64,000 nt of DNA from Patescibacteria group bacterium (lineage in GTDB: Bacteria; Patescibacteriota; Microgenomatia; CAYGWK01), in contig JBMORX010000010.1 of NCBI GenBank assembly GCA_049322615.1, forward strand, positions 25,416 to 89,415, in the 5' to 3' direction. Shown here piece after piece: positions 14,064-34,125 of the stretch (position 1 is its first letter; every line of letters starts with the position of its first letter). The notes beneath the pieces are model-generated. The model worked only from the letters and a program-made list of their open reading frames with translations, was not told the DNA's origin and made no database searches. Both the position numbers and the translations under genes were made by a program.

Positions 14064-14633
14064 TCATTTTTTGAGGTGTTCGACTATTTTATAAAGAATA
14101 ATTCCTGCCGAAACCATCACGTTTAAAGAACGGTTTATTCCTAACATTGGTAGTTCGACGATAACATCGGCTTTTTCTAAGACGCTTTTCGAGATACCAT
14201 ATGTTTCGTTGCCAACCACCACTGCTACAGGAAATTTTGGCTGTAAATCTTTATAGGAAATTGCTTCTTTTTTCTGCTCAACGCAAATTATTTGAACACT
14301 TTTTTTCTTCAGTGAATTGACAACTGAAAGAGCACTTTTTGAATATTCCCAAGGGACCCATTTCCAAGTGGAAACCGAAGCCTTTTTAATTTTTGGGTTA
14401 GGAGGGGTTTCGGTTTGACCACAAAGATAAATTTTTTCTGCCGCCACCGCATCAGCTAAGCGAAAAAGAGCGCCAACATTGTAGGTATCCAAAACATTAT
14501 CCAAAACAAGATAAATTGGATTGCGCTTGATTTTTTTAAGTTCTTCTTCGGTTGGTTCGGTCGTCCTTAGTTCTTTAGCGCCAAGTTTAAGCATCATGTT
14601 CATTTTAGCACAAAAATTTGCTATAATTAACAC
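14064..14633 (-). CDS. SpoU/TrmH-family RNA 2'-O-methyltransferase
   Basis: YLVLDNVLDTYNVGALFRLADA, VVGNETYGIS, LPMLGINRSLNVMVSAGIILYKI are SPOUT-family motifs. Confidence 0.8.
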   Translation of the reverse strand: MLIIANFCAKMNMMLKLGAKELRTTEPTEEELKKIKRNPIYLVLDNVLDTYNVGALFRLADAVAAEKIYLCGQTETPPNPKIKKASVSTWKWVPWEYSKSALSVVNSLKKKSVQIICVEQKKEAISYKDLQPKFPVAVVVGNETYGISKSVLEKADVIVELPMLGINRSLNVMVSAGIILYKIVEHLKK

Positions 14634-14701: not shown

Positions 14702-14774
14702 GGCCCCATCGTCTAGTGGTTTAGGACATGAGGTTTTCAGCCTTAAAACCAGGGTTCGAATCCCTGTGGGGTCA
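14702..14774 (+). tRNA. tRNA-Glu (UUC)
   Basis: Cloverleaf folded by hand: acceptor GGCCCCA/TGGGGTC, D-arm GTCT..GGAC, anticodon stem TGAGG/CCTTA with loop TTTTCAG, T-arm CAGGG TTCGAAT CCCTG; no encoded CCA. Confidence 0.8.
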
Positions 14775-16473
14775 CAGACAAGGATTTTGAGGTTTTAAAA
14801 TCGCTTTTTAGGGCGAAAAGACGGGCTAATTTAGGTGTTCGATTAACTAAATCATCATAAGTTGGCAACTCTTCGAAAAGTAACCCAAACATAGCTGCGT
14901 TTCTAAGGGGTTCGGAGCTTGAGAACAATAATTCTTCGGGGTGTTCGATGTAATATTTCAGGTATCCTAAGACTACCTGGACATCCACTTGTTGCTTTTC
15001 CTTTCGATCACGGATAAGAGTCGCTTGGGCTTTTTCTTGCTCCAAGTTGTCAATATCATCTTCTAAAAGCTTGATGGCTGCCACAGAAGTTAAGACTTTA
15101 ATCTTTTCTTTTAGGTTCTGAATTTCTTGTTCAATTTGGGTGACTCTTTGACCAAAGTTTATTGTATCATCAGATAAATTCTTCTCCCGCTTCTCCCACT
15201 CCTCCAAAACGATTTGCCTGAACCGAATAAAATACTCCTCACTAAACTTAACATCTTCTACGAAGGATTTAATTGTTTTATGAAACTCTGCAACTGGAAT
15301 CCCGATATATTTATGGTTCCTCCCACAGTTGCCGCAGTGATAATAACCATGACGTTCTCCGTTCTTGCTTCTGGAGAAAGAGGCTAAGAGAGACTTTCGA
15401 CAGATGGGACATAAAACATAGTGACGGTAAGGAAATAGGGGATTTTCCTTTAACTTCTTTTGCCCCCAAGGCGATTTTTGGTTTCTTAGAAGAGATACGG
15501 TTCCATCGGGATTTTCTACGATAACAATCTTGCCTCGGTTAGCTTTGTTAAACATGTCTATTGTAACTAAACCATCGAACCGTTCCTTAATTGGTTTACC
15601 TTCTGTCCAAAACTCATCGTTAATTCCAGCGTAGATGGGATTCTGAATATATCGTTGAAATTGTTTCACTGTTAATTTATTGCCACCGCCAAAACCTATT
15701 ATTTTCTTTTTATCGTTGGGGTCATGTCTTTTAAACTTTCTTGATCTAAAACCCATGTCGTTTATTTCCTTTACAATCTCTTTATCATCCAAATTTCCCT
15801 GAATCCTTAGCTCATACATGCGAATAAACCAAGGCGCTTCGGTAGGATCGCCTTCAAGAATTACTCTCATCCCACGCTCGGTTTCTATTTTTTGGTTGCG
15901 AAATCCCATCGGTGCCTGCCTAACATGGTATCCCATGCGAACATATCGAATTTCTGCCCCGATTAGTCTTGTCAAAATCGTTCTGACCTCCTCACGTGCC
16001 CGCTCTGCATCAAGAAGTTCAGTAATCCAGGTAGGGGAAAACTCTGACCAGTCGTATCGGACGTTTAGGTGTGCCAGGGTATTTATTTTTTGGGTGCCGA
16101 TAATTCCCATAACGTCTACAAGCTGGATTCCTAATTTTGAAAGTTGTGTTTTAAGAAGACCGTAGATGGTCGAACCACCTCTGGTAAATCTATCTATGCT
16201 TTTAGTGAAGAAGAACCTGATTTTGTTCGCGGGGTTTTTACAGTATTCTATAGCTTTTAAGACAGGTTGCGTGTCCAACTCGCCTGAAGCTGACTCAGTA
16301 AATTCGAATATCTTCCTAATTTCTATTCGGCAGTTAAGAAGTGTTCCTAATTGTTCTGCTCGAATTTTTATTTGTTCAAGCTGCTCTTCTGGAGAGTCAC
16401 CCGTCATCTCCTGCTTAAGAGAGCTTACCCGAATATCCGCAACCGCGTATTGAATTTCCCGCTCATCCTTCAT
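14743..16473 (-). CDS. Large serine recombinase (integrase); its 3' end overlaps the tRNA-Glu 3' half
   Basis: N-terminal resolvase domain YAVADIRVSSLKQ (catalytic Ser); recombinase domain; C-terminal zinc ribbon CPICRK...CGNCGRNH; coiled-coil tail; last residues PQGFEPWF are translated from the antisense of the tRNA T-arm. Confidence 0.8.
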   Translation of the reverse strand: MKDEREIQYAVADIRVSSLKQEMTGDSPEEQLEQIKIRAEQLGTLLNCRIEIRKIFEFTESASGELDTQPVLKAIEYCKNPANKIRFFFTKSIDRFTRGGSTIYGLLKTQLSKLGIQLVDVMGIIGTQKINTLAHLNVRYDWSEFSPTWITELLDAERAREEVRTILTRLIGAEIRYVRMGYHVRQAPMGFRNQKIETERGMRVILEGDPTEAPWFIRMYELRIQGNLDDKEIVKEINDMGFRSRKFKRHDPNDKKKIIGFGGGNKLTVKQFQRYIQNPIYAGINDEFWTEGKPIKERFDGLVTIDMFNKANRGKIVIVENPDGTVSLLRNQKSPWGQKKLKENPLFPYRHYVLCPICRKSLLASFSRSKNGERHGYYHCGNCGRNHKYIGIPVAEFHKTIKSFVEDVKFSEEYFIRFRQIVLEEWEKREKNLSDDTINFGQRVTQIEQEIQNLKEKIKVLTSVAAIKLLEDDIDNLEQEKAQATLIRDRKEKQQVDVQVVLGYLKYYIEHPEELLFSSSEPLRNAAMFGLLFEELPTYDDLVNRTPKLARLFALKSDFKTSKSLSVTPQGFEPWF

Positions 16474-16501: not shown

Positions 16502-16750
16502 TTACGATATAAACCTCAAGGCTCCTTTCTCCTTATCCTCAAGAATCAAATCAATTAAACGATTAGCTAAAATTCTCATCCTGTCTTCTAGGTCTTGTTC
16601 TAATTGAACGCCTGAGATGGTAGTAATCCCCGACATAGTTGTATAGACCTCGGTAAATTTATCCAGAGTTGAATTAGTTTCTTGACCAAGAACTGTTTCT
16701 AATAAGACGTATGCCTGTGGTTCGCAGTAAACTGGCAGTAATTCAAGCAT
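16502..16750 (-). CDS. Hypothetical protein (82 aa), upstream of and co-oriented with the integrase; possible directionality factor
   Basis: ORF packed 29 bp from the integrase start. Confidence 0.35.
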   Translation of the reverse strand: MLELLPVYCEPQAYVLLETVLGQETNSTLDKFTEVYTTMSGITTISGVQLEQDLEDRMRILANRLIDLILEDKEKGALRFIS

Positions 16751-16752
16751 GG

Positions 16753-17001
16753 TTAGTAGTCCTCCAAAAAGGCAGACAAGACTTGGTTAAAATCTTTTTT
16801 GTTGGTATATTCACCATCGTTATAAGACCCACCGCCATAACTCACCCGCAGGTAAACTTTTAAAGGCCTATTTTGCCAATTAATCCTGCGTATTTTAGTG
16901 TAGAAACGGCGAATCGAGTGGGTCTCGTATCTTTCTACCAATTTACCGTTTTTGATAACCCGAAAAGTAAAATTTAGCCTGTTTTTGTTTTTCTTTTCCA
17001 T
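16753..17001 (-). CDS. Hypothetical protein (82 aa)
   Basis: ORF separated by 3 bp from the downstream gene; basic. Confidence 0.35.
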   Translation of the reverse strand: MEKKNKNRLNFTFRVIKNGKLVERYETHSIRRFYTKIRRINWQNRPLKVYLRVSYGGGSYNDGEYTNKKDFNQVLSAFLEDY

Positions 17002-17123
17002 ACTACCTCCTTAATCCTTATGTCATATATGTCATGTTTAGTGTCATATATGCTTTATTTCTTATAAGGGAGAAAAACATATTAGACTGAGAACATAGTC
17101 TTCTTACATATTCGGCTGATAAC

Positions 17124-17432
17124 TTAAAACATATCTTTTTCATAGCTTGGTTCTTCCATGGCTTCCTTCATCAAATATTCGTCATAACTTTTTAGAATTC
17201 CGTTTTTGATTGCTTGCCAGTCTTCAGGAGAATCTGTCTTGAAAATAGGCCTCCAACCATGGGGGGATAAATAACTAGGAGGGGTTACATAATTTGCTCC
17301 ACTCTCATCTCGGAGAACTTTGAAACCTTTGACCAAAAAACCGTCGAAGTGAATATCGGCACGGGCGATAACTTCACCTTTGTTAGCTTTGAAAATATCA
17401 ATCGAAAGAATTTTAAGTTTGGCTGCTTCCAT
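17124..17432 (-). CDS. spoVG: SpoVG-family nucleic-acid-binding protein
   Basis: KILSIDIFKANKGEVIARADIHFDGFLVKGFKVLRDESGANYVTPPS...GWRPIFKTDSPEDWQAIKNGIL matches the conserved SpoVG core. Confidence 0.6.
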   Translation of the reverse strand: MEAAKLKILSIDIFKANKGEVIARADIHFDGFLVKGFKVLRDESGANYVTPPSYLSPHGWRPIFKTDSPEDWQAIKNGILKSYDEYLMKEAMEEPSYEKDMF

Positions 17433-17685
17433 GATTTTTTCCTTTTTCCTTCATCTCAAAAACCATGTCTCGATAACTTTCTACCGAATCCAGTAAATCT
17501 TTTGCCTGAACTAAAGGGGCTTGTCTGCTTAGATAGGCGTTAACCAATTTCTCGCACCTATCTTTGGGGGCAAAAAGAAAATATATGGTCGTGCCAAGAA
17601 GTTTGGAACCAAGAAATTTAACATCAGGCTGAATCAGAAGATACGGCGTTAATTGTTTATCCTTTGTCTCAAATATATCGTTCAT
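17413..17685 (-). CDS. Hypothetical protein (90 aa)
   Basis: ORF overlapping the spoVG start by 20 nt (operon-like). Confidence 0.3.
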   Translation of the reverse strand: MNDIFETKDKQLTPYLLIQPDVKFLGSKLLGTTIYFLFAPKDRCEKLVNAYLSRQAPLVQAKDLLDSVESYRDMVFEMKEKGKNHGSSQT

Positions 17686-17977
17686 AATTTTTTCCCAACA
17701 AAAAAAGCCGCGAGCTTTTCACTCGTGGCTTAAACTTTTCCCACCTCGTTGTGGGATTTTAAACCCTTTATGATTTTATTTTACCCCTAAAATTTCGTTT
17801 GTCAATAGGCACTTGATGGACAACTTCAGAACCTATTTTACCTCAAATAAATCAATAAATTCCAACTTTCTTTATTTAGGAACCGATTTTTATCAAAACG
17901 ACTCCCAGAATCATATTGGGAAAACAGTAGCTTAAGGGAAAATTTGTTAAAGAAGACAATCCGTTCCTCAAAATAAG

Positions 17978-18016
17978 GAAATTCAATTCAATTCAATTCA
18001 AGTCAATTCAATTTAA
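17978..18016. repeat. Short satellite (aattcaattc)n
   Basis: aattcaattcaattcaattcaagtcaattcaattt. Confidence 0.8.
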
Positions 18017-18079
18017 GAAAAGATAATTCAAGTTAACATCGCTATTATACCAGAAAATTTGTATATTTTCAACTTCGTC

Positions 18080-18610
18080 TTACCCTCGCCAGCTCTCTAG
18101 TTTATCCTTGCAAGATAAGAGGGCTTCCTTAACTTCCTCTGCCGCCTTTAAAAGAGGCTGGTCTAAAAATCCTCCACCATAAGAAACTTTTCCTAAATCA
18201 TAATCAACTAAAACGTTATATCGATGAATTTTGGTGTAGGATTTTTGCAAATTTTCCTGTAGTTCCTCACTCAGAAAATAGATATCTCCCTTGGCGGTCG
18301 ACCAGGCTTCCGTTATAAACCGTATTTTTGCGTTATTAACCATAATATTTTCAGTTAACGCAAGATTTTCGTTAACTTCTGCCAATAATCGTTTTACCGT
18401 GCTTGCCCTGGCTTTTTCCTCTTCTTCTTTTCGCTTTTCTGACTCTTGTTCATAAACCGCTTTAATACTTTTCTCGGCGGCCTTAATCGAACCAAAATAT
18501 GATAACAATCCACCGATAACGGCTCCTATCAGACCGCTTAACAAATTACTTAGTTCCATGCTTAGACAATTATACTCCTCTCGGAGGCGATTACTAAAAG
18601 GGGGACTCAA
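18080..18610 (-). CDS. Hypothetical single-pass membrane protein (176 aa), translationally coupled to the upstream DUF4238-like gene
   Basis: TM helix LSNLLSGLIGAVIGGLLSYF followed by a charged/coiled segment; overlaps the upstream gene by 17 nt. Confidence 0.45.
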   Translation of the reverse strand: MSPPFSNRLREEYNCLSMELSNLLSGLIGAVIGGLLSYFGSIKAAEKSIKAVYEQESEKRKEEEEKARASTVKRLLAEVNENLALTENIMVNNAKIRFITEAWSTAKGDIYFLSEELQENLQKSYTKIHRYNVLVDYDLGKVSYGGGFLDQPLLKAAEEVKEALLSCKDKLESWRG

Positions 18611-19544
18611 TTTTTATACCTGGTTTTCTTGGCATCTTGTCAATCTTGCTCTTTTTAACCAGGTTCAAAAGTTGTTTTCTTTTCCTTGAGATGATAAACC
18701 TATCCGAAAAAAATATTGTCCTAAGGTTAAAATTGTTGATTATCTTATCATCTGCGTCCTGCCAAAAAGTCACCCCACCGTATTTGTGCATATATAGACA
18801 AATTCTAGAAGATAAAGGGAGGGTTAATTCGGCCAAACTGATATGATAAGGCTGAAGTGGGACGGCTCCAAATCTCATGACCGAAAAAGGGTTATCAGAG
18901 GTGAGGAAAAGATTATTTCTTGCTGACCTTACAAAAACCCAATTAAGACGAAAGAATATCCCGTAAAATTCTTTAAAGGACTCCAACATAAAGGTCAGAT
19001 GATATTCCTTCGGCACTTCTATCTTATATTTGTCTTCCTTAATAAATTTCATCGCCTCTTCTGGTGTTATATCGAATTTTTGGCCAGTGTTCCGCTCGAA
19101 ATTTTCAATAGTTTTCTGGGCCCGTTCCTCGTTAAAAAAGCTCATCCTTAACATAATTTTTGAAAATTGCTCGTAGGAATAACTCACATCTCGCCTGAAG
19201 GCTGTAGTTCGTAAGTATTGCGTGGTAACAAATTCACACAGGTCTCTTCTCTCTTCTGGCAAGTTAGGCAAAGTGCCCTTTTCAAGTTTTTCGATAACCC
19301 TGTTTGCCCTTTCTTCAATACTTTTTGCGAAAAGGTCAATTTCGATACTAAGGTTTTTGTCACCATCTTTAGTATGGAAAGTATAAAAATCCCTCTCGAT
19401 TGTCGTGTCTTTTGTAGGTTGTTTTCTCAACTCTTTCTTTTCCCTATCGTAAACCCAAACCATGGAATTGGTGTCGCTAAAACGCTTTAGGTAAAAATTG
19501 GGCATGGTGTGCTGTTTAACTGGTGCCCTTGGCTGGTTTTTCAT
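18594..19544 (-). CDS. DUF4238-like protein (316 aa)
   Basis: N-terminal HTMPNFYLKRFS resembles the hxxPxFYLKxF signature I associate with DUF4238; no catalytic motif recognised. Confidence 0.5.
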   Translation of the reverse strand: MKNQPRAPVKQHTMPNFYLKRFSDTNSMVWVYDREKKELRKQPTKDTTIERDFYTFHTKDGDKNLSIEIDLFAKSIEERANRVIEKLEKGTLPNLPEERRDLCEFVTTQYLRTTAFRRDVSYSYEQFSKIMLRMSFFNEERAQKTIENFERNTGQKFDITPEEAMKFIKEDKYKIEVPKEYHLTFMLESFKEFYGIFFRLNWVFVRSARNNLFLTSDNPFSVMRFGAVPLQPYHISLAELTLPLSSRICLYMHKYGGVTFWQDADDKIINNFNLRTIFFSDRFIISRKRKQLLNLVKKSKIDKMPRKPGIKIESPF

Positions 19545-19603
19545 AATTCACCCTTATATCGGATATTATACCGTTTATTGCCCAAAACAGTTAAAATATA
19601 AGT

Positions 19604-20137
19604 ATGGTTAGGAAGTATGATTGGCTTAAATTACAGCAAGAATTTATAACGGGTGGCTGGCTAACCGTCAGTGACTTCTTCAGGTCAAAGGGTGTCCCCT
19701 CCAACTCAAGAACACGCGCGAACGCTAAGGGATGGCGTGAGAAAAAAGTTGCCTACGGAAAAAGGGTGATTGCCGAGGTTAGAGAAAAAACAATCGAATC
19801 GGAAGCTGAAATACGGTTAAGACAACAACGGGCGGCAAAATATCTCCAGTATAAAGGCTTAAAGAAGCTGGAAGAACTGCCAGTCGAGAAACTTGATACG
19901 AAAGAGGCGAGAAAGTTGCTCGTGGATGGATTGCAACAAGAAAGGGAAGCTTTGGGTCTTGATAAGGACATAAAAGCCACGCAAATCAATATCAGTTATC
20001 CTTCTAGGACTGAATTAGATAAATTTATTGAGACCGCAACTTACGAACAAATTCTTGAGCTTATCGCCGAAGTTAAAAAGGAAAAGGCAAGAAGAAAATC
20101 AACTCTCGCATGCGAGAGTCTTCGAAACAAACTATAA
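19604..20137 (+). CDS. Hypothetical protein (177 aa); phage-like DNA-binding or terminase-small-subunit-like N-terminus
   Basis: YDWLKLQQEFITGGWLTVSDFFRSKGV then Lys/Arg/Glu-rich helices; divergent from the DUF4238 operon. Confidence 0.4.
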   Translation: MVRKYDWLKLQQEFITGGWLTVSDFFRSKGVPSNSRTRANAKGWREKKVAYGKRVIAEVREKTIESEAEIRLRQQRAAKYLQYKGLKKLEELPVEKLDTKEARKLLVDGLQQEREALGLDKDIKATQINISYPSRTELDKFIETATYEQILELIAEVKKEKARRKSTLACESLRNKL

Positions 20138-20361: not shown

Positions 20362-21171
20362 TTATAGATTGTCCTCAACAAAAGTGCGATTTGCTCTATC
20401 GGGCTCATCCCGACTGGTCTCTACATCTTTAAGCCAGGTGTAAAAGGGACTGGCACTAAAAGATTTCCAATCATCTTCAGTAAGGCTATTAGCTTGATTT
20501 TTCCCCAGAAAGGCTCTGAAATACTTCCCTATGCTTTTCGGAGAGTTAACCGTTATTCCTGCCTGCTTAATTGGATAGCCTGAGTGGTAAACTCCAGAGA
20601 TAAAATTTAACGCCCATAATTTAACAGTTGTTCCCGCAAATAGTTCAGGCCACTTGTTTACTATATTAACAACAACCCACTCACCATCTTCCTGTTGAAT
20701 CGCTGACACCATGGTCTCCTCTCCTCCCGCTTCTTCTCTGGCAATCTTAGAAAATATTTCTTGAGGGTCTGGTGTGGGGGTAGGAGTAGGCTTTTCCGTT
20801 GGTTTGGGGGTAGGCTCTATTGTGGGAGTTAGTGTGGGTGTGGGAGACGATACGGGCGCTGGAGTCGGCGAAGGCGACGGCGATGGACTGGGAGTAGGTG
20901 AAGGGGTGGCTAAAGTAACAGGTTTCGGTTTTGACTTATATGTCTCAGAAGAAGTAATAGCCATAACCCAGGCTGTTCCAAAAAGAATAGAAAAACCGAG
21001 AATTGGCAAAATCAAAAGCCACCTTAAAAGAAAATTCTTAATCTTGGTAGCTAAAAAATAGGACACTCCTCCGCCGATAACAAAAGGCCAAAAGAATAAT
21101 CCTAAACCAATTAAAATCAGCTTTGTCCACCACGCTTTTTGCCAAATATTTTTTATAATCTCAATTTTCAT
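20362..21171 (-). CDS. Membrane protein with a Pro/Thr/Ser-rich linker and a C-terminal extracellular domain
   Basis: 3 N-terminal TM helices; [45 protein letters not shown] linker. Confidence 0.5.
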
Positions 21172-21277: not shown

Positions 21278-21499
21278 ATGGTTTTATCCAAACAAAACTT
21301 TCTTAAGCGTTTCGGCAAGAGAATAAAACAACTCCGCAAGAAGGGTAAAATTTCTCAGGAGGGATTAGCTTTTTCGGCGGGAGTTCATCGGACTTACATG
21401 GGAAGAATCGAAAGGGGAGAAAGTAACCCGCCGATTTATACGGTCTATAAGATTGCTAAAGCTTTAAAGATTAAATCTTCGGAACTTTCTCCTTTCTAG
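21278..21499 (+). CDS. XRE-family helix-turn-helix transcriptional regulator
   Basis: ISQEGLAFSAGVHRTYMGRIERGESNPPIYTVYKIAKALKI is a Cro/C1-type HTH. Confidence 0.7.
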   Translation: MVLSKQNFLKRFGKRIKQLRKKGKISQEGLAFSAGVHRTYMGRIERGESNPPIYTVYKIAKALKIKSSELSPF

Positions 21500-21934: not shown

Positions 21935-22171
21935 ATGCATTACGTTTATATTTTAAGATTAGAAAACGATACATTTTATACAGGTTATACAAACGATTTA
22001 AAGAGAAGACTTATTGATCACAAAGGTGGTAATACGCCACATACGAAAAAATTTAAGCCAGTAGAATTGGTTTATTATTCAGCCTTTAAAAACAAAACAA
22101 GAGCTTTAGGTTTTGAAAAATATCTAAAATCTGGATCAGGAATTGCTTTTAGAAATAAAAGGTTAATTTGA
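21935..22171 (+). CDS. GIY-YIG nuclease superfamily protein (UPF0213/YhbQ-like, 78 aa)
   Basis: YVYILRLENDTFYTGYTNDLKRRLIDH is the GIY-YIG core; RBS aaggagga upstream. Confidence 0.75.
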   Translation: MHYVYILRLENDTFYTGYTNDLKRRLIDHKGGNTPHTKKFKPVELVYYSAFKNKTRALGFEKYLKSGSGIAFRNKRLI

Positions 22172-22337: not shown

Positions 22338-22681
22338 ATCTTCGGTATGAGATAGAAGTTTTCGCCAAGCTTGCAACCACGGAAGCACAGAAGGTTGCAG
22401 AAGCACAGAAAGTGCCCCGCTTGGCGGGGCTTTTCAGTTTTACATACCTTGAAAAATGCACCTTAATAAGTGAATAGAAAATCTATTCACATCCTTGACA
22501 ACCGCGCTCAGCGCGGTTTAAGCCGAGCTCAGCTCGGCAATCAAGATGTGACAGGAAACGAACAAAAGTTCGATTTCTTGCCCGCCTAAATTTTCGCACT
22601 CGGCCTTTCAGTACTATTCGTACACGCCTCGTGCCAAAATTTTTGGCGGACTGCAAAAATTGAACTTCGTTCAATTTTTTT

Positions 22682-22724
<43 letters not shown>

Positions 22725-23478
22725 TAGGCATGCAAGTCGATCGGTCGTTCGTGTCTCACTTTCGTTCGACACTTACTCCCTCAATAGCAAATATTAAATA
22801 GTAAAAATCAAAAATACATAGTAAACATTAAAAATATTTAAATTTTGATATGTATATTTACTATTTAATTTTTAATATTTAATTTTGAGCGAGTGGTGAG
22901 CGGGAGCGAGACACGAGCGATAGAGGCAGACGGGTGAGTAATGCGTACCAACCTACCTCCAAGTGAAGCATAGCCATTCGAAAGGATGGGTAATACTGCA
23001 TACGGTGGGTGGAGTTCTAAGGGTAGAAATGAAAAATGAAAATAGAAAAAATAAGCAAGCTTGTTGCTAGCGCAATAAAAATGACAATTAAAAATTTTAA
23101 AATTTTACATTGTAATTTTTCATTTTTATTTTTTAGTTTTTAATTTTATCAGTTTATTTAGCAACTTTTACTTTTAGATCTCCATCCATCAAAGAGAGTA
23201 ACTTCTCGCTCGGAGATGGGGGTGCGTCCTATCAGCTTGTTGGTGGGGTAAAAGCCTACCAAGGCGATGACGGGTAGCTGGACTGAGAGGTCGGTCAGCC
23301 ACAAGGGGACTGAGAGACGGCCCCTACACCTACGGGTGGCAGCAACTAGGAATCGTTCGCAATGGGGGAAACCCTGACGACGCGACGCCGCGTGGAGGAT
23401 GAAGGCCTTCGGGTTGTAAACTCCTTAATCCCGAACGATAGCGAGGGAGGATTAAGCACCCACTAACTACGTGCCAGC

Positions 23479-23721
23479 CACGTACAATTTTTGCGATGGC
23501 TGGTGGCGCGTAGTCTAAATCCGACTATATGCTGGGAACTCTTTTGATGTCCGCAAACAGTGTTGTGGTTTTTATGACCCGCGTCAAAAGACAATCAGCA
23601 GGCAACCCGACGTTCAGTTTACATAAACGTGGGAAGTCCTCAGAGACTATACGTCGGATTCCGATAGAATCGGGAAAGATATAGTCCAAATGTTACGTAG
23701 CAAAAATGTTACGTGGCCAGC
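23479..23721 (+). mobile_element. Group I intron (no ORF) at the 16S 515-region
   Basis: Splits GTGCCAGC|..|AGTTGCGGTAA; contains the P7-type core cagagactatacgtcgg...gatatagtcc. Confidence 0.6.
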
Positions 23722-24548
23722 AGTTGCGGTAAGACGTAGGGTGCAAGCGTTATCCGGATTTATTGGGCGTAAGGCGTTTCGTAGGCGGTCCGATGAGTCC
23801 CGACTTAAATACCCCGACTCAATCGGGGAAGTGGTTGGGATACTATCGGACTTGAGGTTTTTGGGAGGTGCTGGAATTCGCGGTGAAGCAGTGAAATGCG
23901 TTGATATCGCGAGGAACACCAAGGGCGAAGGCAAACACCTAAAAAACATCCCGTAAATTGCCTTCGGCAATAACGGGACTCCCGTAAAGAGCAATCTTTA
24001 TGGGAATTCTGTATGCCAAAAGAATTGAGGGAACCCCGTTAGTCTTGAGCGTAAGCGAAAGACTTTACGGGGCCTGACGCTGAGGAACGAAAGCTAGGGG
24101 AGCGAAAGGGATTAGAGACCCCTGTAGTCCTAGCCGTAAACTATGCTCGCTAGATGCCCGGCTTGTGCTTCGCACAAGTTTCCGAATTAATCCGAATGCT
24201 TGGTTTTGGTTTAAAATTTATTCGGATAAATTCGGATGAAGAACTTGACCTAGAAGATCAGTCTCAACATCCGAATAAATCCAAATAAGAAAAGCAAACA
24301 AACACATTAGGATTAAATTCGGATATCTCGTGCGGAGCACGAGCTAGGTGTCGTAAGCTAACGCGTTAAGCGAGCCGCCTGGGAAGTACGGCCGCAAGGC
24401 TAAAACTTAAAGGAATTGACGGGGAGCTGCACAACCAGGGGAGCGTGTGGTTTAATTCGAGACGAAACGAAGGACCTTACCTGGGTTTGACATGCCGACG
24501 TTCTAGTCCGATGAAAATCGGACAAGTCCGCAAGGAGGTCGGCACAGC

Positions 24549-24579
<31 letters not shown>

Positions 24580-25015
24580 GGGTGTTGGCTTCAGTGCCAT
24601 AACGAGCGCAACCCCTATTGTCTGTTAAATTTTCAGACGAAACCGCCCCGCCTATTTTGTCGCGGTTGTTAACACTATTTATTCTTGAGTTACAACCTGA
24701 ATTTAGTTAATAATGGCGGCGCAAGGGCGAATAGCCCTGCCCTATTCGGGCACAGCGCCGCGATTGGAATCAACGGCGGCAAATATGGCGGGGAGGAAGG
24801 AGGGGACGACGTCAAGTCAGCACGGCGCTTATGTCCAGGGCAACACACACACTACAATGGACAAAAACAGCGAGTTGCAAGCACGTAAGTGTAAGCTAAT
24901 CTCGGAAATTTGTCCTCAGTTCAGATTGTGGGCTGCAACTCGCCCACATGAAGATGGACTTGGTAGTAATCGCGGGTCAGCAAACCGCGGTGAATACGTT
25001 CTCAGCTCTTGTACA

Positions 25016-26053
25016 AAAATTGCGCCTACCGGTTTGGTTTTCCATTCCGTTGAAATCGGAACCAAAAAGAATAATTTTTGGAAGCGAAATAACATCCTCC
25101 GATGGTGACATCGAAGCGAGAAGGGTTAAAGTAGCATTTTCTAGCTTGCAGTCGAGACGGTCCCGCCTATTTGATGACCTTTCGTACAAATAGGGAAATC
25201 ACTTATTCTAATTTTGCCTTTAAAAATAAGCAAAATAGGCGGGATATTTGGGCTCGAGATGGAAAAGAAAGGAAAACCAAATTACGTAGGGAGATCTGCC
25301 ATTGACCCACCAAAAAATTGCAGCATGAGCCGCAGTTGAAATCAACTAAGGCGAATGCTAAAATTTAGGCGGGTAGTTGTCGGTGTGAACTAACAACGTA
25401 AATGGTAGAAGTCTGCAGAGTGCGTAGTACCCCGCCGAAGCGCACCACGAGCCGTGTATGAATAATACTGAAAAGGCGAGTGGCAAGCGAATGGCTGGGG
25501 GAAGGCACGTAAACTATCCAAATGGGCGCATACAAAATCATCAGTCCTTGGTATATCGTTGGTTTTACCGAGGGAGAAGGTTGTTTTGCCATAATTCTTT
25601 CGAGACATAAAACAAAGAAGGCTAAAAGGGATGCCGGACTTTGTTTTGAAATTGAGCTTCGGGGGGACGACAAACCAATCCTTGAAAGAATTCAAAAGAG
25701 GCTGGGGTGTGGTCAAATTATTGATCTTGAGTACGAGCGTTATGGTTGGAAACCCCATGTGAAGTATGTCGTTAGAAAGCAAAAAGATCTTTTCTTTAAG
25801 GTGATTCCTTTTTTCAAACAGTTTCCGCTACAAGGCAAAAAACAAAAAGATTTTGAGCTTTTTTGCCAAGCCGCGGAAATTATAAAAAATAGGGAACACT
25901 TAAAAGATGATGGAATCAAAAAACTTGAAAAAATCAGGGAATTTATGAATGAGCGCCGACCGATGTTTGGATAGTCATTCGCGAGGGTGCGGGAAAACCG
26001 CGTGCCCCGTGAGAATAGAAAATATTTTGAGCAATCAGATATTTATCTATGAA
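25016..26053 (+). mobile_element. Intron at the 16S 1391-type site carrying a LAGLIDADG HEG
   Basis: Exon junction cttgtaca|cactgcccgtca reconstitutes CTTGTACACAC(C/T)GCCCGTCA. Confidence 0.65.
25522..25974 (+). CDS. LAGLIDADG homing endonuclease (single-motif, 150 aa)
   Basis: WYIVGFTEGEGCFAI motif; inside a 16S intron. Confidence 0.8.
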   Translation: MGAYKIISPWYIVGFTEGEGCFAIILSRHKTKKAKRDAGLCFEIELRGDDKPILERIQKRLGCGQIIDLEYERYGWKPHVKYVVRKQKDLFFKVIPFFKQFPLQGKKQKDFELFCQAAEIIKNREHLKDDGIKKLEKIREFMNERRPMFG

Positions 26054-26144
26054 CACTGCCCGTCAGATGAACAAAGTCAGGGGCACTTGAAGTCCCGATT
26101 TAATCGAGATTAAAGTGAACTTGGCGATGAGCATCAAGTCGTAA

Positions 26145-26920
26145 AAAAGTTGCGACTCCCGACGGTAACGTCGGGAAAAAATCTGGCTATATCGGGGAAG
26201 CCTAAATCTGCTAAAATTAAATTAGGGATATGGTAACCGCGAGGGAACCTCGATTTAATCGGGGACTCCGTAGAGACTATACGCCAGTTCCTGTCAGAAA
26301 ATGACGAAAGCATATTTGCTGGGAGCACTCCATGATGCTACCGAGCGAAAAACCACCTATCGCATTGCTCAAAAGAGCAAATCGTATATTGAATTTCTAG
26401 CCGAAGGGATTAGATCCTTGGGCCGAAAAGCCTGGATGTACAAGGAAGGAAAATCAAGAAATCTTTATGTAGTTGAATTTTCTAAATCCTTATTAAAAAA
26501 TACTAAAATTTCCTCTCGGCAAGAAAAAATTGACTATGTGCGTGGCTATTTTGATGCGGAGGGTGGAATTGCTCGAGATCCGAAAGTGAATTATTATTTG
26601 TATTTTGCTCAGAAAAATTTGGGAGATTTACAAAAAACTAAACATTTTTTGGAAGAATTAGGCATCAGTTGTGGAAGAATTCATAACCCAAGCAAAAGGG
26701 CGGATCCAGATTACTGGCGATTCTTTATAAGAGCAAAATCTTATGAAGATTTTGCCAGAATAATTGGTTCGGATCATCCAGAAAAAAGTCATTTTCTGAG
26801 AGGATAAAGAGATAGTCCATGCCTCTGGAAACAGAAGGAAGAACCCCGAATAATTTTACCGTTCGCCGGAGTATCATTCGAACTGCGGCTCACGGAGCAA
26901 TTCAACGGGGTGAACATGAA
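26145..26920 (+). mobile_element. Group I intron at the 16S 1506-type site carrying a LAGLIDADG HEG
   Basis: Splits GAAGTCGTAA|CAAGGTA; P7-type strands gtagagactatacgcc (26272) and agatagtcc (26812). Confidence 0.6.
26301..26807 (+). CDS. LAGLIDADG homing endonuclease (168 aa)
   Basis: RGYFDAEGGIA motif; second motif region LLGALHDATE; inside a 16S intron. Confidence 0.7.
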   Translation: MTKAYLLGALHDATERKTTYRIAQKSKSYIEFLAEGIRSLGRKAWMYKEGKSRNLYVVEFSKSLLKNTKISSRQEKIDYVRGYFDAEGGIARDPKVNYYLYFAQKNLGDLQKTKHFLEELGISCGRIHNPSKRADPDYWRFFIRAKSYEDFARIIGSDHPEKSHFLRG

Positions 26921-27156
26921 CAAGGTATCCCTACTGGAAGGTGGGGATGGATCACCTCCTTTCTAAGGAGTAATTCGGAGCGATTAAGCAACTAAGCAAT
27001 TGAGCTATTGAGTTTTTCTTAATAGCTTAGTAGCTGAATAGCTTAATAGCTAAAATACACCCGAGAAGGCGAACTCGTTAAAATCGCCAAATTTCCTGTC
27101 ACGTAAGAACGTTGATTTTGCTCTGCAAAATCTTACGTTCAACGTGACTAGGGACG

Positions 27157-27519
27157 TTAGACGTAATCCGCCTTTGGCGGAAACGTCTTTTCGTCCCTGT
27201 CACATCTTGGTTGTTGAGGAGCGAAGCGACGAAATCCGCCGAAAAGTAAGCTTAGGCGTTTTTGTACTATTGTAATAGGACAGTGATACAAGTTGGAAGT
27301 GTTTTTCAAATAGGAAACAAAAAACCCCGATTTAAATCGGGGTTTTTTGATAGAAGCCAGTGTTTGATTTCCCTTTTTGGGATTTCGCCCACTGTCGGTG
27401 GTCCAGCCGATCAGGTCCCCGGTCTCAAACCCGGGATTGACTGGTCCGTCGGCGAGAGCCACGGTCGGAACCATTGCTATCGCCAAAACGATAGACACTG
27501 CCAGCAAACGCCATTTCAT
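27157..27519 (-). CDS. Small secreted protein (signal peptide MKWRLLAVSIVLAIAMVPTVALA); the ORF probably reads through a terminator hairpin, so the true 3' end is uncertain
   Basis: Sec-type signal peptide; the downstream part of the ORF overlaps the bidirectional terminator at 27331-27364 and looks non-protein-like. Confidence 0.3.
   Translation of the reverse strand: MKWRLLAVSIVLAIAMVPTVALADGPVNPGFETGDLIGWTTDSGRNPKKGNQTLASIKKPRFKSGFFVSYLKNTSNLYHCPITIVQKRLSLLFGGFRRFAPQQPRCDRDEKTFPPKADYV
27331..27366. terminator. Bidirectional intrinsic terminator hairpin
   Basis: aaaaaaccccgatttaaatcggggttttttga: GC stem with U-runs on both strands. Confidence 0.6.
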
Positions 27520-27846
27520 CTGCTTTCTCCTACTTACTTATTTTTTCTGCCGCTACCTGTCAGCAGAACGCCATTTCTCTTTTCAAGGAGCAAAAGCACC
27601 GCGTTTGCGACGCAGACCTCGCCGAAGTCCGCCAGCAGGCGAGACGAAGGCGGGTCAAGCTGCGTTTTAAAACCAAAAAGTGGAACATAATTTACCACTT
27701 CCGATTTTAAACCCGAGAGAATTCTATTATAAACAAAGAGAAAAGTCAATATTATAGGGTTATAGGGTGAGAATGGAATGCGCCCAAGAAGATGAGATTT
27801 TGTCCCAAATCCTTGGGCGCGGTTTAACAAGTGAATGGCGTTGTTC

Positions 27847-28551
27847 TTAAGAGACTGGACCACCTGAATGATTTGGTGGTGGGATAGCCCGATAGATATG
27901 GACCTGGACGCCAAACGGCGGCCGCGGGCTGGTGTGAAGGTTTTCCCAGTTAAGGATAACCTGATCTGGGTTACAGACGAGTGAGGCAATGCTCACTCGG
28001 AGAGTCCACCCCCGATCCCCCCAGTCGAAGAGGTAAATCGTCTCACCCTTTCCGGGGTGGAACAGAATTACTTCCTCGAAGGAGTCCATTGCCATTCTCC
28101 CCGCTGGTTGTCCACCAATCTCCTTCCAGTAAAATTCGACGACTCTCCAATTAGGGTTATTCACCCTTATTTGAAGAGGCGGACATGAAGGGGGAGGAAC
28201 AGGAGGAGGTGGGACGGCCGTGGGCGGTGGTGGTGGAGGTGGTGGAGGAGGTGGGGGAGGTGGTGGACAATCCGGTTCGCCGTGCAGACACCCCTGAGGA
28301 GACGCATGGTTGTTGCCAGGATTTCCTGGACGACCATGCAGGTCACCATTACTGCTTCCGGTCTCCACCGGATTTCCTGGTCCGCCAGGCTGTCCGTGAC
28401 CATTTCCCTGGCTGTGAGGCGGAGGTCCTCCAGCCACCACAGTTGCTGGTGCTGCCAGTACCAGTACCAGCATGCAAATCGCGAGAATTCTTACCGCTCT
28501 CATTTCCTTCTCCTTCCCATTTTTATTTTTCGTACGCCATTCACTTGTCAA
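27847..28551 (-). CDS. Secreted Pro/Gly-rich protein with a 20-residue poly-Pro tract
   Basis: Signal peptide MRAVRILAICMLVLVLAAPATVVAG; GNGHGQPGGPGNP..; CPPPPPPPPPPPPPPPPTAVPPPPVPPP. Confidence 0.5.
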   Translation of the reverse strand: MTSEWRTKNKNGKEKEMRAVRILAICMLVLVLAAPATVVAGGPPPHSQGNGHGQPGGPGNPVETGSSNGDLHGRPGNPGNNHASPQGCLHGEPDCPPPPPPPPPPPPPPPTAVPPPPVPPPSCPPLQIRVNNPNWRVVEFYWKEIGGQPAGRMAMDSFEEVILFHPGKGETIYLFDWGDRGWTLRVSIASLVCNPDQVILNWENLHTSPRPPFGVQVHIYRAIPPPNHSGGPVS

Positions 28552-28764
28552 GGAACAAATGCGCCAACATTTGTGACGCAGACCTCGCCGAAGTCCGCCA
28601 GCAGGCGAGACGAAGGCGGGTCAAGGAACAATTAAAGAATTTGTCTTTAATAACCAAAAAAGAATGGACAGCAGAAATCGCCCATTCCTAGTTATTAAAT
28701 TGCGGCGATAGTAGCATAAGACTTGCCAAAAATCAAGTTTTTTAGTAAAATATTTTTAAGATTG

Positions 28765-28805
28765 GGCGATTAGCTCAGTTGGTTAGAGCAGCCCGCCAAA
28801 ATTTT
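28765..28805 (+). other. Orphan tRNA 5'-half fragment (tRNA-Ile-like acceptor, D-arm and 5' anticodon stem) directly upstream of tRNA-Ile
   Basis: GGGCGATTAGCTCAGTTGGTTAGAGCAGCCCGCCAAAATTTT; near-identical to 31294-31335. Confidence 0.6.
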
Positions 28806-28877
28806 GGGTCGGTAGTTCACCGGTAGAACGCTTACCTGATAAGTAAGAAGTAGATGGTTCGACTCCATCCCGACCCA
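28806..28877 (+). tRNA. tRNA-Ile (GAU)
   Basis: GGGTCGG/CCGACCC acceptor; anticodon stem CTTAC/GTAAG with loop CTGATAA; T-loop TTCGACT. Confidence 0.85.
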
Positions 28878-28923
28878 CAGTTTTGAAGAAGAAGGCGAAT
28901 CGGGAAGGGCGCTCCGCTCCAAA

Positions 28924-28952
28924 TTAGCCTCTTGACAAAAAATCGCACGTGC
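28924..28952 (+). promoter_or_regulatory. sigma70-like promoter (TTGACA-16/17-GATAAT) with an internal CGCACGTGCG palindrome
   Basis: cTTGACAaaaaatcgcacgtgcgATAATTtg, upstream of ORF 29209. Confidence 0.5.
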
Positions 28953-29208
28953 GATAATTTGTCAATAAATTAGCCTCAAAATTTAAAAGAAAAACCCAAA
29001 AATTCTAAAGAACAATGTTTAAAACTTTAAAGGCGCAACCGGTGGAGTCAACAAGAAATTGCTTTCCGTTGCCCGATTGCGCCATCAAAAAAAGCAATCT
29101 CCAAAATGTTGACTCCAATAACAATATACCAAAACTAAGAATAGAAAAACAAGTGGATTTCGGTACTTGAATTTTGAAAATATGATATACTTTTACTTGG
29201 AGGTAAAA

Positions 29209-29982
29209 ATGGAAAATCAAATAAGCATAGGTGATCAAAATAGCCAGCAAATTGGCCAAAATTCGATAAATCCACTTATCAGCAACAAACAGGACACAAA
29301 GCCCGTTTGGCAATCCGACGCCTTTATCATATTGACTCTATTATTATTTTGGCCAGTGGGCTTGTTTCTGATGTGGAAATATGGACCGTGGAGGAAGTTG
29401 GTAAAGTGGTTACTTACCGTATTTTTTACACTAGCGTGGTGGCCGGTCATTTTAATATTTTTGTTTATAGTTTTTCTCAAGGGGGTTGGAGTGGCCAATA
29501 AGGCTTATTACTCTCTGCCGATGGTAAAGAAAAACACTGATATTTTTTCTTGCAGTGCTGTTACCCAACCATGGGGCAAGTGTAAAAATACGGAAGTTGG
29601 TTTTTCATTCGAATATCCGGCTGACTGGTACTATAAAGTTGTAAATCCGCCAAAGGATATAGTATTTAGTGATAAGCAAGAAAAATTAGAAGAAGCTTAT
29701 ATTATTTCTCTTTACCATGATTTCTACGACACCGAAGAAAGAGCTAAAAGAAAAGAGGATGTAAACGATAAAGAACTAGTTGTAAATGGTTTATGGGCTA
29801 CTAGACATGATGTACGATCTAGTGGAATTTATGCTTCACGCGTAAAAATATTATATAATCGTACACTTTACACATTCCAAATAATGCTAACTCCCGGATT
29901 GGGAGGGAGGCAATATTCTGAAACAGAGCTGAAGAATTTTGACTCTATATTTGATCATATGTGGAACAGTTTTCAAATCTAG
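29209..29982 (+). CDS. Membrane protein (hypothetical), 2-3 TM helices plus a C-terminal domain
   Basis: RBS ggagg 8 nt upstream of MENQIS; hydrophobic FIILTLLLFWPVGLFLMW and WWPVILIFLFIVFL. Confidence 0.5.
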   Translation: MENQISIGDQNSQQIGQNSINPLISNKQDTKPVWQSDAFIILTLLLFWPVGLFLMWKYGPWRKLVKWLLTVFFTLAWWPVILIFLFIVFLKGVGVANKAYYSLPMVKKNTDIFSCSAVTQPWGKCKNTEVGFSFEYPADWYYKVVNPPKDIVFSDKQEKLEEAYIISLYHDFYDTEERAKRKEDVNDKELVVNGLWATRHDVRSSGIYASRVKILYNRTLYTFQIMLTPGLGGRQYSETELKNFDSIFDHMWNSFQI

Positions 29983-29991
29983 AAGTAATTT

Positions 29992-30210
29992 ATGAATGAC
30001 GATACACTGAAGAGCAAAGAAAAGATCATAGTTTGGATTGCAAATTTAATAAATCCTTTGATTGCCGGGTTTTTATTTTATTACTCGTGGAGGAAAAGAT
30101 TTCCAAATAAAGCAAAACAGGCAAATACAATTTCTTTTCTAGCTCTTGGGATTGACTTTATTATTTATATTTTGCTAACTAACTGGTTTAAACTAGGGAG
30201 AACGTTTTAA
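29992..30210 (+). CDS. Small membrane protein (72 aa, hypothetical)
   Basis: Two hydrophobic helices; 10 bp after the upstream stop. Confidence 0.3.
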   Translation: MNDDTLKSKEKIIVWIANLINPLIAGFLFYYSWRKRFPNKAKQANTISFLALGIDFIIYILLTNWFKLGRTF

Positions 30211-30413
30211 ATTTGCTCGGCGGAGCCGAGCAAAAATCGCGCGCGCGAAACATAAGCGAGGCCGAAGGCCGAGCCCTTCGACTGCGCTCAGGGTAAACTC
30301 CAAGATGGCGCGGCGAGTGGGCGGCGGCACTCGCGGCGCTACCCTTGAAATAAAGTCCGAATTTTTTCGTAAAGAGTCCACCGTTTCCCAAACTGCCCAA
30401 AGAGCAGTTTTTT

Positions 30414-30866
30414 ATGCGAGAAAGAGAAGACCTTAGTCAGCAAATAAGAGAAATAAAAAAAAGAGCCTTGCTCGTTCTTCAGGGGGAAAGGCGAGAGGTA
30501 ATTCTTTGGTCTTTTGGAGCACCTTTGCCCAAAGAGGTGGAAGAAGCAATTTTAGAGTTTGAAAGAGAGTATGAGGATCCTAGAAGAAATATTTTTTCCT
30601 CCGCCAGAGAAGAAGTTTATTCTGGTTTGCGAATTTGGGTTCAAACAAAAGACTATCCTCTAAAAGGTCTGTCTTCCCATCGGGATGCTGAAATTATCTT
30701 AAGACAAAAAGTTCGGAATTTTCCGGCTAGACCGCCCCATATTCCCCACCTTCCTTCCATGCCCCATCGATTTTCTCATCAAGAGGAATGGAGAGTAATT
30801 AATTTTAGTTGGCAGAGAATACTTGAACGAATTCGAGAAAAGTTGGCTTCGTTCCTTCGGGCTTAA
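30414..30866 (+). CDS. Hypothetical protein (150 aa)
   Basis: Charged N-terminus; no recognisable domain. Confidence 0.4.
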   Translation: MREREDLSQQIREIKKRALLVLQGERREVILWSFGAPLPKEVEEAILEFEREYEDPRRNIFSSAREEVYSGLRIWVQTKDYPLKGLSSHRDAEIILRQKVRNFPARPPHIPHLPSMPHRFSHQEEWRVINFSWQRILERIREKLASFLRA

Positions 30867-30932
30867 CCCTGTACAACACTTACCTGCTCCCGAATACTTC
30901 GTGTTCGCGTCGCAAGGGCGTGTATGCGGGGC

Positions 30933-30961
30933 TTGACAAGACAAAATGCCTTTGTTATAAT
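30933..30961 (+). promoter_or_regulatory. Consensus sigma70 promoter (TTGACA-17-TATAAT) upstream of the tRNA/23S/5S block
   Basis: gcTTGACAagacaaaatgcctttgtTATAATgc. Confidence 0.65.
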
Positions 30962-31118
30962 GCTTTTTAGTTAGGAGTCAGTCCTAAGTTTAATTCATGA
31001 GAAGCCTAAGAAATTTAATAAGTCGTTTAAGACAGTTTTTGCGTGGGAAATAGTTTGGGCTTTTCAAAGCACATTAAGCTGGCTCCGATAAGGAGCCATT
31101 TTGTTTCGGAGTAATCAG

Positions 31119-31244
31119 AAGACTCGGAAAACTCGGAGAATCAGGCGGTCAGATTGTCAGAAATTCTGATTATCAGATTTCTCTGATCTTTCCGACGCAC
31201 TGAGTTTTCTGATTCTCTGAAACGAGGGCCCGTAGTTCAACTGG
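31119..31244 (+). repeat. Repeat family A copy 2, followed by tRNA 5'-fragments
   Basis: Aligns with 21638-21767, including the GGGCCCGTAG(T/C)TCAA tRNA-Lys-like 5' end. Confidence 0.8.
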
Positions 31245-31293
31245 CCCCGTAAATCCGCCTTCGGCGGTAACGGGGTAAACAGAACATTTTGGG

Positions 31294-31458
31294 CCGTTAG
31301 CTCAACTGGCTAGAGCAGCCCGCCAAAAATTGTGAGAAGGGCCTATGGCGTAACGGTAGCGCATTTCGTTTGCAACGAAAAGGTTGGGAGTTCGATTCTC
31401 CCTAGGTCCACACAATTTAGGCGGGAGGTAGAGGGTTCGAATCCCTCACGGTCCACTA
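31294..31458 (+). other. tRNA-like split gene: 5' half (31294-31338) and 3' half (31411-31458) flanking a complete tRNA-Ala
   Basis: 5' half GGGCCGTTAGCTCAACTGGCTAGAGCAGCCCGCC; 3' half TAGGCGGGAGGTAGAGGGTTCGAATCCCTCACGGTCCA; the acceptor and CCCGCC/GGCGGG stems are complementary; 7-bp inverted repeat AATTGTG/CACAATT brackets the inner tRNA. Confidence 0.5.
31339..31410 (+). tRNA. tRNA-Ala (UGC)
   Basis: GGGCCTA/TAGGTCC acceptor; anticodon stem TTTCG/CGAAA with loop TTTGCAA; T-loop TTCGATT. Confidence 0.85.
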
Positions 31459-33116: not shown

Positions 33117-33153
<37 letters not shown>

Positions 33154-34125
33154 AAAAGAAAGCGTAACAGCTCACTGGAAGACCCGTCTCGACTCAGTCG
33201 AGCCGAGGCGGATTGGGTGGGTGCGCCGAAAATTTACCGAGGCTAAAAGCCAATACCGAAGACAAAGGTTTCGTGCAGAGCACTGCTCTGCGCGAGGCAG
33301 TAGGGGAGCGTCCCGATAGCAGTGAAGTCCTTCCGCAAGGTCAGGATGGAGCTGTCGGGAGTGAGAATGCCGGTATGAGTAGCGAAAGTCCGATAAGAAT
33401 TCGGACCGCCGAAAACCCGAGGTTTCCCCCGCAATGTTCGTCAGCGGGGGGTTAGTCGGTCCTAAGCCAAGTCCCCGATTTAATCGGGGAGTAGGCGATG
33501 GAGGAGCCGTTTATATTCGGCTACAGGAAAGAAATCATTTTTAGTCGGGGATTGACAGAAATGGAAGAGCCAAGTCTCGAAATGACACGGGATTTAAGTT
33601 ATAAGGCAGTTCCGATAGGAAAATCCATCGGAACGTTTTAACCGAGTAACAAATAAGAGTCCAACCCGCAAGGGAAGGGCAATTTGGTAAGCTTTCAATT
33701 CTTGAAAAAAGATTCGCGACGAACCCGAATAGTCTTACCATTCGCCTTAGTACATTTGTACTGCGGCTTATGGAGCGACTTAACGGGTCTAGGATTTCTT
33801 TTTTACCGTACCGCAAACCGACACAGGTGGGTTGGACCAGAAGTCTAAGGCGAGCGGGAGAAGGAAGTTTGAGGAACTCGGCAAAAAATCTGGGCGTAAG
33901 CTATGCAAGATGCCCTCCCCCACACCAAATTTTGGTGTGGGGGTGCAACAAAAGATTGTTTGGCGACTGTTTAACTAAAACACAGGCCTCTGCAAAGGGT
34001 AATACCCAAGGTATAGGGGCTGAAGCCTGCCCAGTGCCGGAAGGTTATGGGGACTTGTCCTTCGGACATTTGCCCGGAGGGCGAGAAACTTAAGCCCCGG
34101 TGAACGGCAGCAGTAACTATAAACG

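Follow-up and report, generated by a model that had tools for sequence, protein, structure and literature searches.

The closest described relative of the locus reported here is a single DUF4238-domain protein encoded at the P2 hotspot of an E. coli P2-like prophage, which conferred strong resistance to phage T7 when it was cloned (Rousset et al. 2022; PMC9122126). A TIR-containing defense system of E. coli also has a DUF4238 domain (PMC11350192), and PADLOC holds a DUF4238 model, so that the family is already catalogued as a defense family. We analyzed a stretch of 64,000 nucleotides (nt) from the metagenome-assembled genome of a Patescibacteria (CPR) group bacterium (GenBank assembly GCA_049322615.1, contig JBMORX010000010.1, positions 25,416 to 89,415; hereafter the window, with positions counted from its first letter), in which a DUF4238 gene is carried on an integrative element directly upstream of a gene for a small membrane protein. 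An original prediction made from the letters of the sequence had taken the two genes for a translationally coupled module and a candidate defense or abortive-infection system. Our analysis leads, with moderate confidence, to a different arrangement: the DUF4238 gene is probably stand-alone defense cargo, and the small membrane gene an independent mobile gene that came to be juxtaposed with it in this lineage only. The features on which this reading turns are as follows.

18594..19544, minus strand: DUF4238 (PF14022) protein of 316 amino acids (aa), candidate stand-alone anti-phage gene (open reading frame and profile match).
18560..18593, minus strand: 34-nt spacer from the DUF4238 stop codon to the supported ATG of the small gene, containing GAGAGGAG and TATAAT (read from sequence).
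18080..18559, minus strand: membrane-anchored protein of 159 aa, uncharacterized family (NCBI annotation and family alignments; 176 aa if started from the TTG at 18610).

The identity of the first gene is clear. In a Pfam profile search, the 316-aa protein matches PF14022/DUF4238 with E 1.1e-44 and 153.4 bits against a cut-off of 27, and the alignment runs from end to end, with residues 10-289 on profile positions 1-280 of 281. Membership in the family had been proposed from the N-terminal signature PNFYLKRFS, with which the open reading frame (ORF) indeed begins, and is borne out by this full-length match; NCBI likewise names the protein 'DUF4238 domain-containing protein' (100% identity). 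The PADLOC model DUF4238-Pers is also matched (E 4.2e-12, 44 bits, residues 11-224 on profile positions 7-222 of 309). The accompanying statement that the function of the family is unknown is out of date, as the family is already catalogued as a defense gene and has a validated anti-T7 member. Literature retrieved under the identifier PF14022 consisted only of unrelated Plasmodium gene identifiers.

To decide between a two-gene system and chance neighbors, we considered the loci of the homologs of each gene. The DUF4238 sample comprises 88 loci (64 non-redundant at 90% identity, and 46 non-redundant with at least 600 nt of downstream sequence), and the small-protein sample 18 loci, equivalent to about nine non-redundant contexts and too few for statistical enrichment. 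With both a narrow and a broad profile of the small protein, no significant match was obtained in any of the 88 DUF4238 loci, and none of the 18 small-protein loci contains DUF4238. The six closest DUF4238 homologs, at 48-71% identity (71% in locus L105, 65% in L012, 62% in L017, 61% in L010, 60% in L009, and 48% in L011), are all without the small gene, with the proviso that L105 offers only about 170 nt of downstream sequence. The pair is thus not conserved, an outcome that the original prediction had itself named as refuting a two-gene module, and the inference of an operon is to be corrected: the neighboring membrane gene is not part of the DUF4238 system.

The proposed translational coupling fares no better. 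Both a 176-aa product and the 17-nt overlap of the two genes presuppose a TTG start at 18610, which lacks support; the start annotated by NCBI is the ATG at 18559, giving 159 aa, and all close homologs (159-170 aa) begin at an ATG that has the hydrophobic helix just 3' and a Shine-Dalgarno-like sequence 5' of it. Because the annotation and the homologs agree on the ATG, we place a gap of 34 nt, and no overlap, between the genes. Around the pair, we noted three further features.

19565..19594, minus strand: promoter-like site TTAACT-18-TATAAT upstream of DUF4238, in a 59-nt divergent intergenic region (consensus match only).
17711..17725, minus strand: first terminator-like hairpin 3' of the small gene (pattern match only).
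17970..18036, no strand: (AATTC)n pentamer repeat tract directly 3' of the small gene (repeat search).

The promoter- and terminator-like sites are pattern matches, and the region has no more of them than shuffled sequence does; read with that in mind, they make co-transcription of DUF4238 and the small gene plausible. A strong promoter-like site on the minus strand (18072-18044, with 11 of 12 consensus positions and an upstream TG) adjoins the repeat tract.

Shared strand, 34-nt spacing, a single upstream promoter-like site, and the absence of a terminator-like site from the spacer are also what one would see if the pair were a true, recently assembled, lineage-specific two-gene system, in which DUF4238 would sense or process a phage component and the membrane protein would be the effector, causing membrane disruption and abortive infection. 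A possible parallel is found at the distant locus L054, where a 189-aa ORF (821-1390) lies 118 nt 3' of DUF4238 and is built along similar lines, with a charged helix after a glycine-rich one at the N terminus. We tried this ORF as a homolog of the small protein and rejected it, the likeness amounting to 8.8 bits, which is not significant. With that parallel gone, with the overlap dependent on an unsupported start codon, with a validated DUF4238 that works alone, and with no small gene at any other DUF4238 locus, even those of the six closest homologs, we regard a two-gene system as decidedly unlikely.

The genomic contexts of DUF4238 in the sample fit those of a defense-island gene. In locus L028 (362-8052), the gene is embedded in a type I restriction-modification (R-M) locus in the order hsdM, Bro-N, hsdS, DUF4238, hsdR, and DUF4238 overlaps each of its two neighbors by 4 nt. 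A gene for an OLD-family ATPase/TOPRIM nuclease lies directly 3' of DUF4238 in L040; a C5-methyltransferase, a 311-aa ORF, and Vsr lie directly upstream of it in L105, the locus of the closest homolog; a type III R-M system is found near it in L011; and SocA_Panacea and a serine recombinase are found near it in L009. In batch scans of 141 ORFs neighboring DUF4238, the leading matches were to DNA methyltransferases, recombinases of the serine and tyrosine types, trypsin-like peptidases, and ATPases of the AAA_21/AAA_15 families. Distant copies of DUF4238 occur on 36 plasmids. A tblastn search of a phage collection gave zero matches, and the only viral match was structural, to an uncharacterized protein of Stenotrophomonas phage Smp131 (E 3.5e-9), which we take to be a P2-like phage. 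Some homologs stand beside housekeeping genes.

None of these neighbors, among them R-M genes, recombinases, and OLD/AbiEii-type ATPases, recurs to an extent that would mark it as a partner. The commonest neighbor families are present at 7 and 6 of the 64 non-redundant loci, and none exceeds 7, which agrees with a one-gene DUF4238 system. The most frequent are Trypsin_2 peptidase genes (7 of 64 by clustering; L021 6465-7304 and 4-6 others); we note in passing that these peptidases match PADLOC RT-Protease_XI models. A closely spaced ORF on the same strand follows DUF4238 at 18 of the 46 loci with sufficient downstream sequence, and these 18 ORFs are mutually unrelated, four of them, including that of L054, being small with an N-terminal hydrophobic helix.

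These contexts also bear on the possibility that neither gene is anti-phage here, and that both are element-maintenance or neutral cargo, serving for example in exclusion of competing elements, in addiction, or in a membrane function for an epibiotic lifestyle. Such a reading would sit well with the very few defense systems and the one phage described for Patescibacteria (PMC12366544), and with those homologs of DUF4238 and of the small protein that lie beside housekeeping genes. We nonetheless consider it very unlikely in view of the experimental anti-T7 activity within the DUF4238 family and the repeated position of DUF4238 in or beside R-M systems and abortive-infection (Abi)-type ATPases. 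What survives of the proposed defense system is accordingly the part that concerns DUF4238, with its validated family and its R-M and recombinase contexts; the two-gene module does not survive.

Alignment of the DUF4238 protein with its relatives provides some indication of how it may work. Across 25 homologs, down to 24% identity, the residues H12, D33, R34, E68, E77, D217-N218-P219, N273, and D281-R282 are invariant, and P15, Y18, T215, and S216 nearly so; the family motifs H-x-x-P-x-x-Y-L-x-x-F (N-terminal), T-S-D-N-P (central), and S-D-R-F (C-terminal) are all present. From the invariant polar residues we infer a probable enzyme active site. An AlphaFold2 model of the protein is confident (predicted local distance difference test [pLDDT] 89.5, predicted TM score [pTM] 0.86) and of mixed alpha/beta character. 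A Foldseek search of the model against the PDB returned nothing meaningful (best E 0.28, TM score at most 0.15), and a profile search against PDB sequences found no relative, so that no function can be assigned to DUF4238 on the basis of fold; in the same fold and sequence searches, the window copy showed no similarity to anticodon nucleases. The combination of a confident model without a solved match and a set of invariant polar residues makes the mechanism of the family open to mutagenesis.

The small protein belongs to an uncharacterized family. Its N-terminal helix, LSGLIGAVIGGLLSYFGSI, is glycine-rich and hydrophobic (KD19 = 1.67), and in the family alignments an N-terminal LLSGLIGAxIGG helix leads into a charged stalk rich in Lys and Glu and then into a helical bundle at the C terminus, with E61, N65, Y108, and N115 conserved. 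Of the description of this ORF as having one transmembrane (TM) helix and a coiled segment, we confirm a hydrophobic N-terminal helix and, after it, a charged helical stretch. The AlphaFold2 model is all-helical with a single helix over residues 2-75 (pLDDT 68); its Foldseek matches were generic helical bundles only (E > 0.4). Profile searches of Pfam, NCBIfam, PADLOC, PHROG, and the PDB gave no significant family, and the phage, plasmid, and viral-contig collections gave no match, while two members of the family weakly match the Pfam entry 'Glycine zipper 2TM' (E 0.009). We infer that the C-terminal bundle faces the cytoplasm.

The family is rare and scattered. A search of 1.84 billion representatives gave 182 clusters of it at E ≤ 1e-3, nearly all of 150-180 aa, and it occurs in only 4 of approximately 185,000 species genomes. 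These four genomes belong to four different lineages (Humimicrobiia, Chloroflexi, and Actinomycetes metagenome-assembled genomes, and an unclassified bacterium) and encode proteins 47-62% identical to that of the window; we read this spread as horizontal transfer. As a rare, horizontally mobile family that is a chance neighbor of DUF4238, the small-protein gene constitutes a weak lead in its own right.

At every locus, the small gene is on the same strand as its upstream neighbor and downstream of it, and most of the genes in this upstream position are nuclease-like or defense-like. It is found 3' of a NucS_C/YhcG-type (PD-(D/E)xK) nuclease, with SIR2 and an R-M system of the MmeI type nearby (L003 and L004, one context); 3' of a T5orf172-SeqA_C protein (L001 and L002); 3' of a 245-aa gene without known family, on a related element (L006); and, as a relative, 3' of hsdR and a 72-aa gene with stop and start codons overlapping (L103). 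Other contexts are of a more ordinary kind: the three loci of a distant branch (L099-L101) have the gene 3' of a class II ribonucleotide reductase, with a nucleotidyltransferase/HEPN pair afterwards in one of them, and L014 has it 3' of a lipoprotein-like gene, beside a decarboxylase. Taken together, these contexts are suggestive of a defense-island or mobile-element gene, in a sample that is small and mixed. A conserved 4-TM protein follows the small gene in L001-L005, and no remnant of it was found in the 395-nt gap 3' of the small gene in the window.

This distribution raises the alternative that the 159-aa protein is a shared effector or adaptor with interchangeable upstream genes (DUF4238, the NucS_C/PD-(D/E)xK nuclease, T5orf172-SeqA_C, the 245-aa protein, or hsdR with the 72-aa gene), the window pair then being one case of 'X + membrane module'. 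The constant strand and order, the mostly nuclease-like or defense-like character of the upstream genes, and the short distances in the window (34 nt), in L006 (27 nt), and in L103 (overlap) would all follow from such an arrangement. So would the situation in L006, where the 245-aa gene and the small-protein homolog are followed by a 274-aa paralog in which only the N-terminal glycine-rich helix and the juxtamembrane segment are shared, the C-terminal domain being another, from which we conclude that the membrane module is reused (L006 5236-7315 corresponds to L016 5221-7300). Yet the gaps at the other loci range from 80 to 440 nt, the ribonucleotide reductase of L099-L101 and the lipoprotein-like gene of L014 do not fit the pattern, and some nine non-redundant contexts are too few for enrichment statistics, so that a shared module appears unlikely to us.

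Since the gene tends to flank nuclease and defense genes on their 3' side, the small protein would, at our best guess, be an accessory that acts autonomously at the membrane, in exclusion or in abortive infection. More broadly, there is a slim but appreciable chance that it represents an unrecognized defense-associated family, either a gene that acts by itself at the membrane against phage or in exclusion, or a portable module with effector function that DUF4238, the NucS-like nuclease, T5orf172, and hsdR recruit. Small integrative elements would carry such a family from phylum to phylum, and it is missing from all current defense catalogues.

The vehicle of both genes in the window is an integrative element of about 7 kb with a serine recombinase at a tRNA-Glu gene, and the proposal of such an element is supported. 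Its components, and the genes between DUF4238 and its probable right end, are listed here from left to right.

14702..14775, plus strand: tRNA-Glu(UUC), probable integration site and left element boundary (tRNA call).
14743..16473, minus strand: large serine recombinase (PHROG 95 integrase, E 3.7e-28, residues 6-492).
16502..17685, minus strand: four small backbone genes of 82, 82, 102, and 90 aa (the 102-aa product weakly SpoVG-like, the 90-aa product with a homolog in the L006 element).
19604..20137, plus strand: 177-aa protein divergent from DUF4238 (54% identity to a 166-aa protein of L010; no Pfam or NCBIfam match).
20362..21171, minus strand: 269-aa membrane protein, possibly element cargo (no family match).
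21278..21499, plus strand: XRE-family helix-turn-helix (HTH) regulator near the probable right element end (HTH_3, E 2.8e-14).

The 3' end of the recombinase gene overlaps tRNA-Glu by 33 nt. The product carries the N-terminal motif RVSSxKQ (RVSSLKQ), read from the sequence, and its match to the Pfam Recombinase family is weak (19.4 bits, below the cut-off). No second, displaced 3' end of tRNA-Glu and no flanking direct repeats turned up in the window, which is not unusual for serine integrases; the right end, at approximately 20.2-21.7 kb, is an estimate. A related element (L006/L016) has a recombinase 47% identical to that of the window, a homolog of the 90-aa backbone gene, and a different gene in the place of DUF4238 upstream of the small gene. 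The XRE gene that had been described as lying next to the pair does exist, at a distance of 1.7 kb with two genes between; related XRE genes are also found near DUF4238 in L009, L011, and L079. In the 269-aa ORF, a long linker rich in Pro, Thr, and Ser joins an N-terminal membrane region to a globular part at the C terminus.

The gene on the other side of DUF4238 was also considered as its conserved partner. In L010 (4077-4638), the 177-aa gene and DUF4238 are found in the same divergent arrangement, with a spacer of about 60 nt that shares TTATATTTTA and GGTATAAT with that of the window, and the two serine-recombinase elements are otherwise different (recombinases 25% identical). From sequence comparison, the 177-aa gene and DUF4238 look like a divergent cassette of two genes, conserved on both elements. 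The cassette was not found in the remaining 86 DUF4238 loci, and we rejected the 177-aa gene as a general DUF4238 partner since it recurs in L010 only.

Several observations concern the chromosome around the element. In L017 (18-1547), from a related genome, the 62% identical DUF4238 lies about 440 nt from a homolog (54%) of the host SpoU/TrmH-type methyltransferase gene of the window (14064-14633), at a locus that has neither a recombinase nor a tRNA nor the small gene; DUF4238 may persist in the SpoU/TrmH chromosomal neighborhood without the element backbone. To the right of the element, a 78-aa ORF (21935-22171) between tRNA-Lys and tRNA-Gln has the N-terminus YVYILR...FYTGYTNDLKRR, presumably typical of GIY-YIG-type nucleases; it has no NCBIfam match and a homolog in the DUF4238 locus L051. 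Beyond it, the rRNA operon (22676-36851) shows heavy interruption: the 16S match extends over 2,376 nt and includes a group I intron at 23474-23703, tRNA-Ile lies 3.7 kb past the 16S end, the 23S match covers 3,811 nt where the model has 2,925 nt, and there are two 5S matches (36634-36686, partial, and 36736-36851).

Considering all of the evidence, we favor stand-alone DUF4238 cargo beside an independent mobile gene, and would picture the locus as follows. DUF4238 most likely acts as a single-polypeptide enzyme and, by analogy with the validated P2-hotspot homolog, would block phage without a partner; anti-phage activity of the window copy itself is expected on the same analogy. The 159-aa gene would have ended up beside DUF4238 in this lineage only, probably being co-transcribed with it, and its product would be anchored in the membrane by the glycine-zipper-like N-terminal helix, with the charged stalk and the C-terminal helical bundle following. 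Its family appears to hop between unrelated phyla and to settle preferentially at the 3' flank of varied nuclease and defense genes. Several points weigh against this picture. The PADLOC alignment takes in only two thirds of the length of the 316-aa protein; identity to enterobacterial and plasmid DUF4238 proteins is only 22-27%; the enzymatic reading of DUF4238 draws on conservation alone, no relative of known function having been found by fold or sequence; the defense association of the small protein comes from about nine non-redundant contexts, with the three distant-branch loci beside a housekeeping ribonucleotide reductase; and the close spacing, the common strand, and the lack of a terminator between the genes are equally the appearance of a true operon.

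The defense reading of DUF4238 is reasonable but already known, the family having been published as a single-gene anti-T7 defense. The find is mildly notable because the defense systems recognized in Patescibacteria are very few (PMC12366544): it would enlarge the short list of immune genes seen in this group by a catalogued defense family, DUF4238, and it places the gene on a compact serine-recombinase element with which it travels. The Patescibacteria defense proteins treated in PMC12366544 are LdgA and DdgA.

Three kinds of described system invite comparison. The small protein resembles glycine-zipper or single-pass effectors of abortive infection or exclusion in its GxxxG-rich N-terminal helix, its small size, and its location on mobile elements and beside defense genes; it differs from them in that no homology could be detected between it and the entries of PADLOC, PHROG, Pfam, or the PDB, so that the likeness is one of architecture only. 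Accessory defense genes of the PrrC/RloC type sit within type I R-M hsd loci. Comparable placements are seen in L028, where DUF4238 lies between hsdS and hsdR, and in L103, where the small-protein relative comes after hsdR and the 72-aa gene, whereas the window locus is without R-M genes and has no anticodon-nuclease similarity. The nearest counterpart is the DUF4238 system of the E. coli P2 hotspot (Rousset et al. 2022; PADLOC DUF4238-Pers). The window copy is very distant from it, with 22-27% identity to the plasmid copies and a PADLOC match confined to residues 11-224, and it is borne, in a Patescibacterium, by an element with a serine recombinase at a tRNA gene and not by a P2 prophage hotspot. 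The two nevertheless belong to the same Pfam family over their full length, and the PADLOC model aligns with part of the window protein; both are cargo of mobile elements with no obligatory partner across homologs, and the window protein has a structural match in a protein of phage Smp131.

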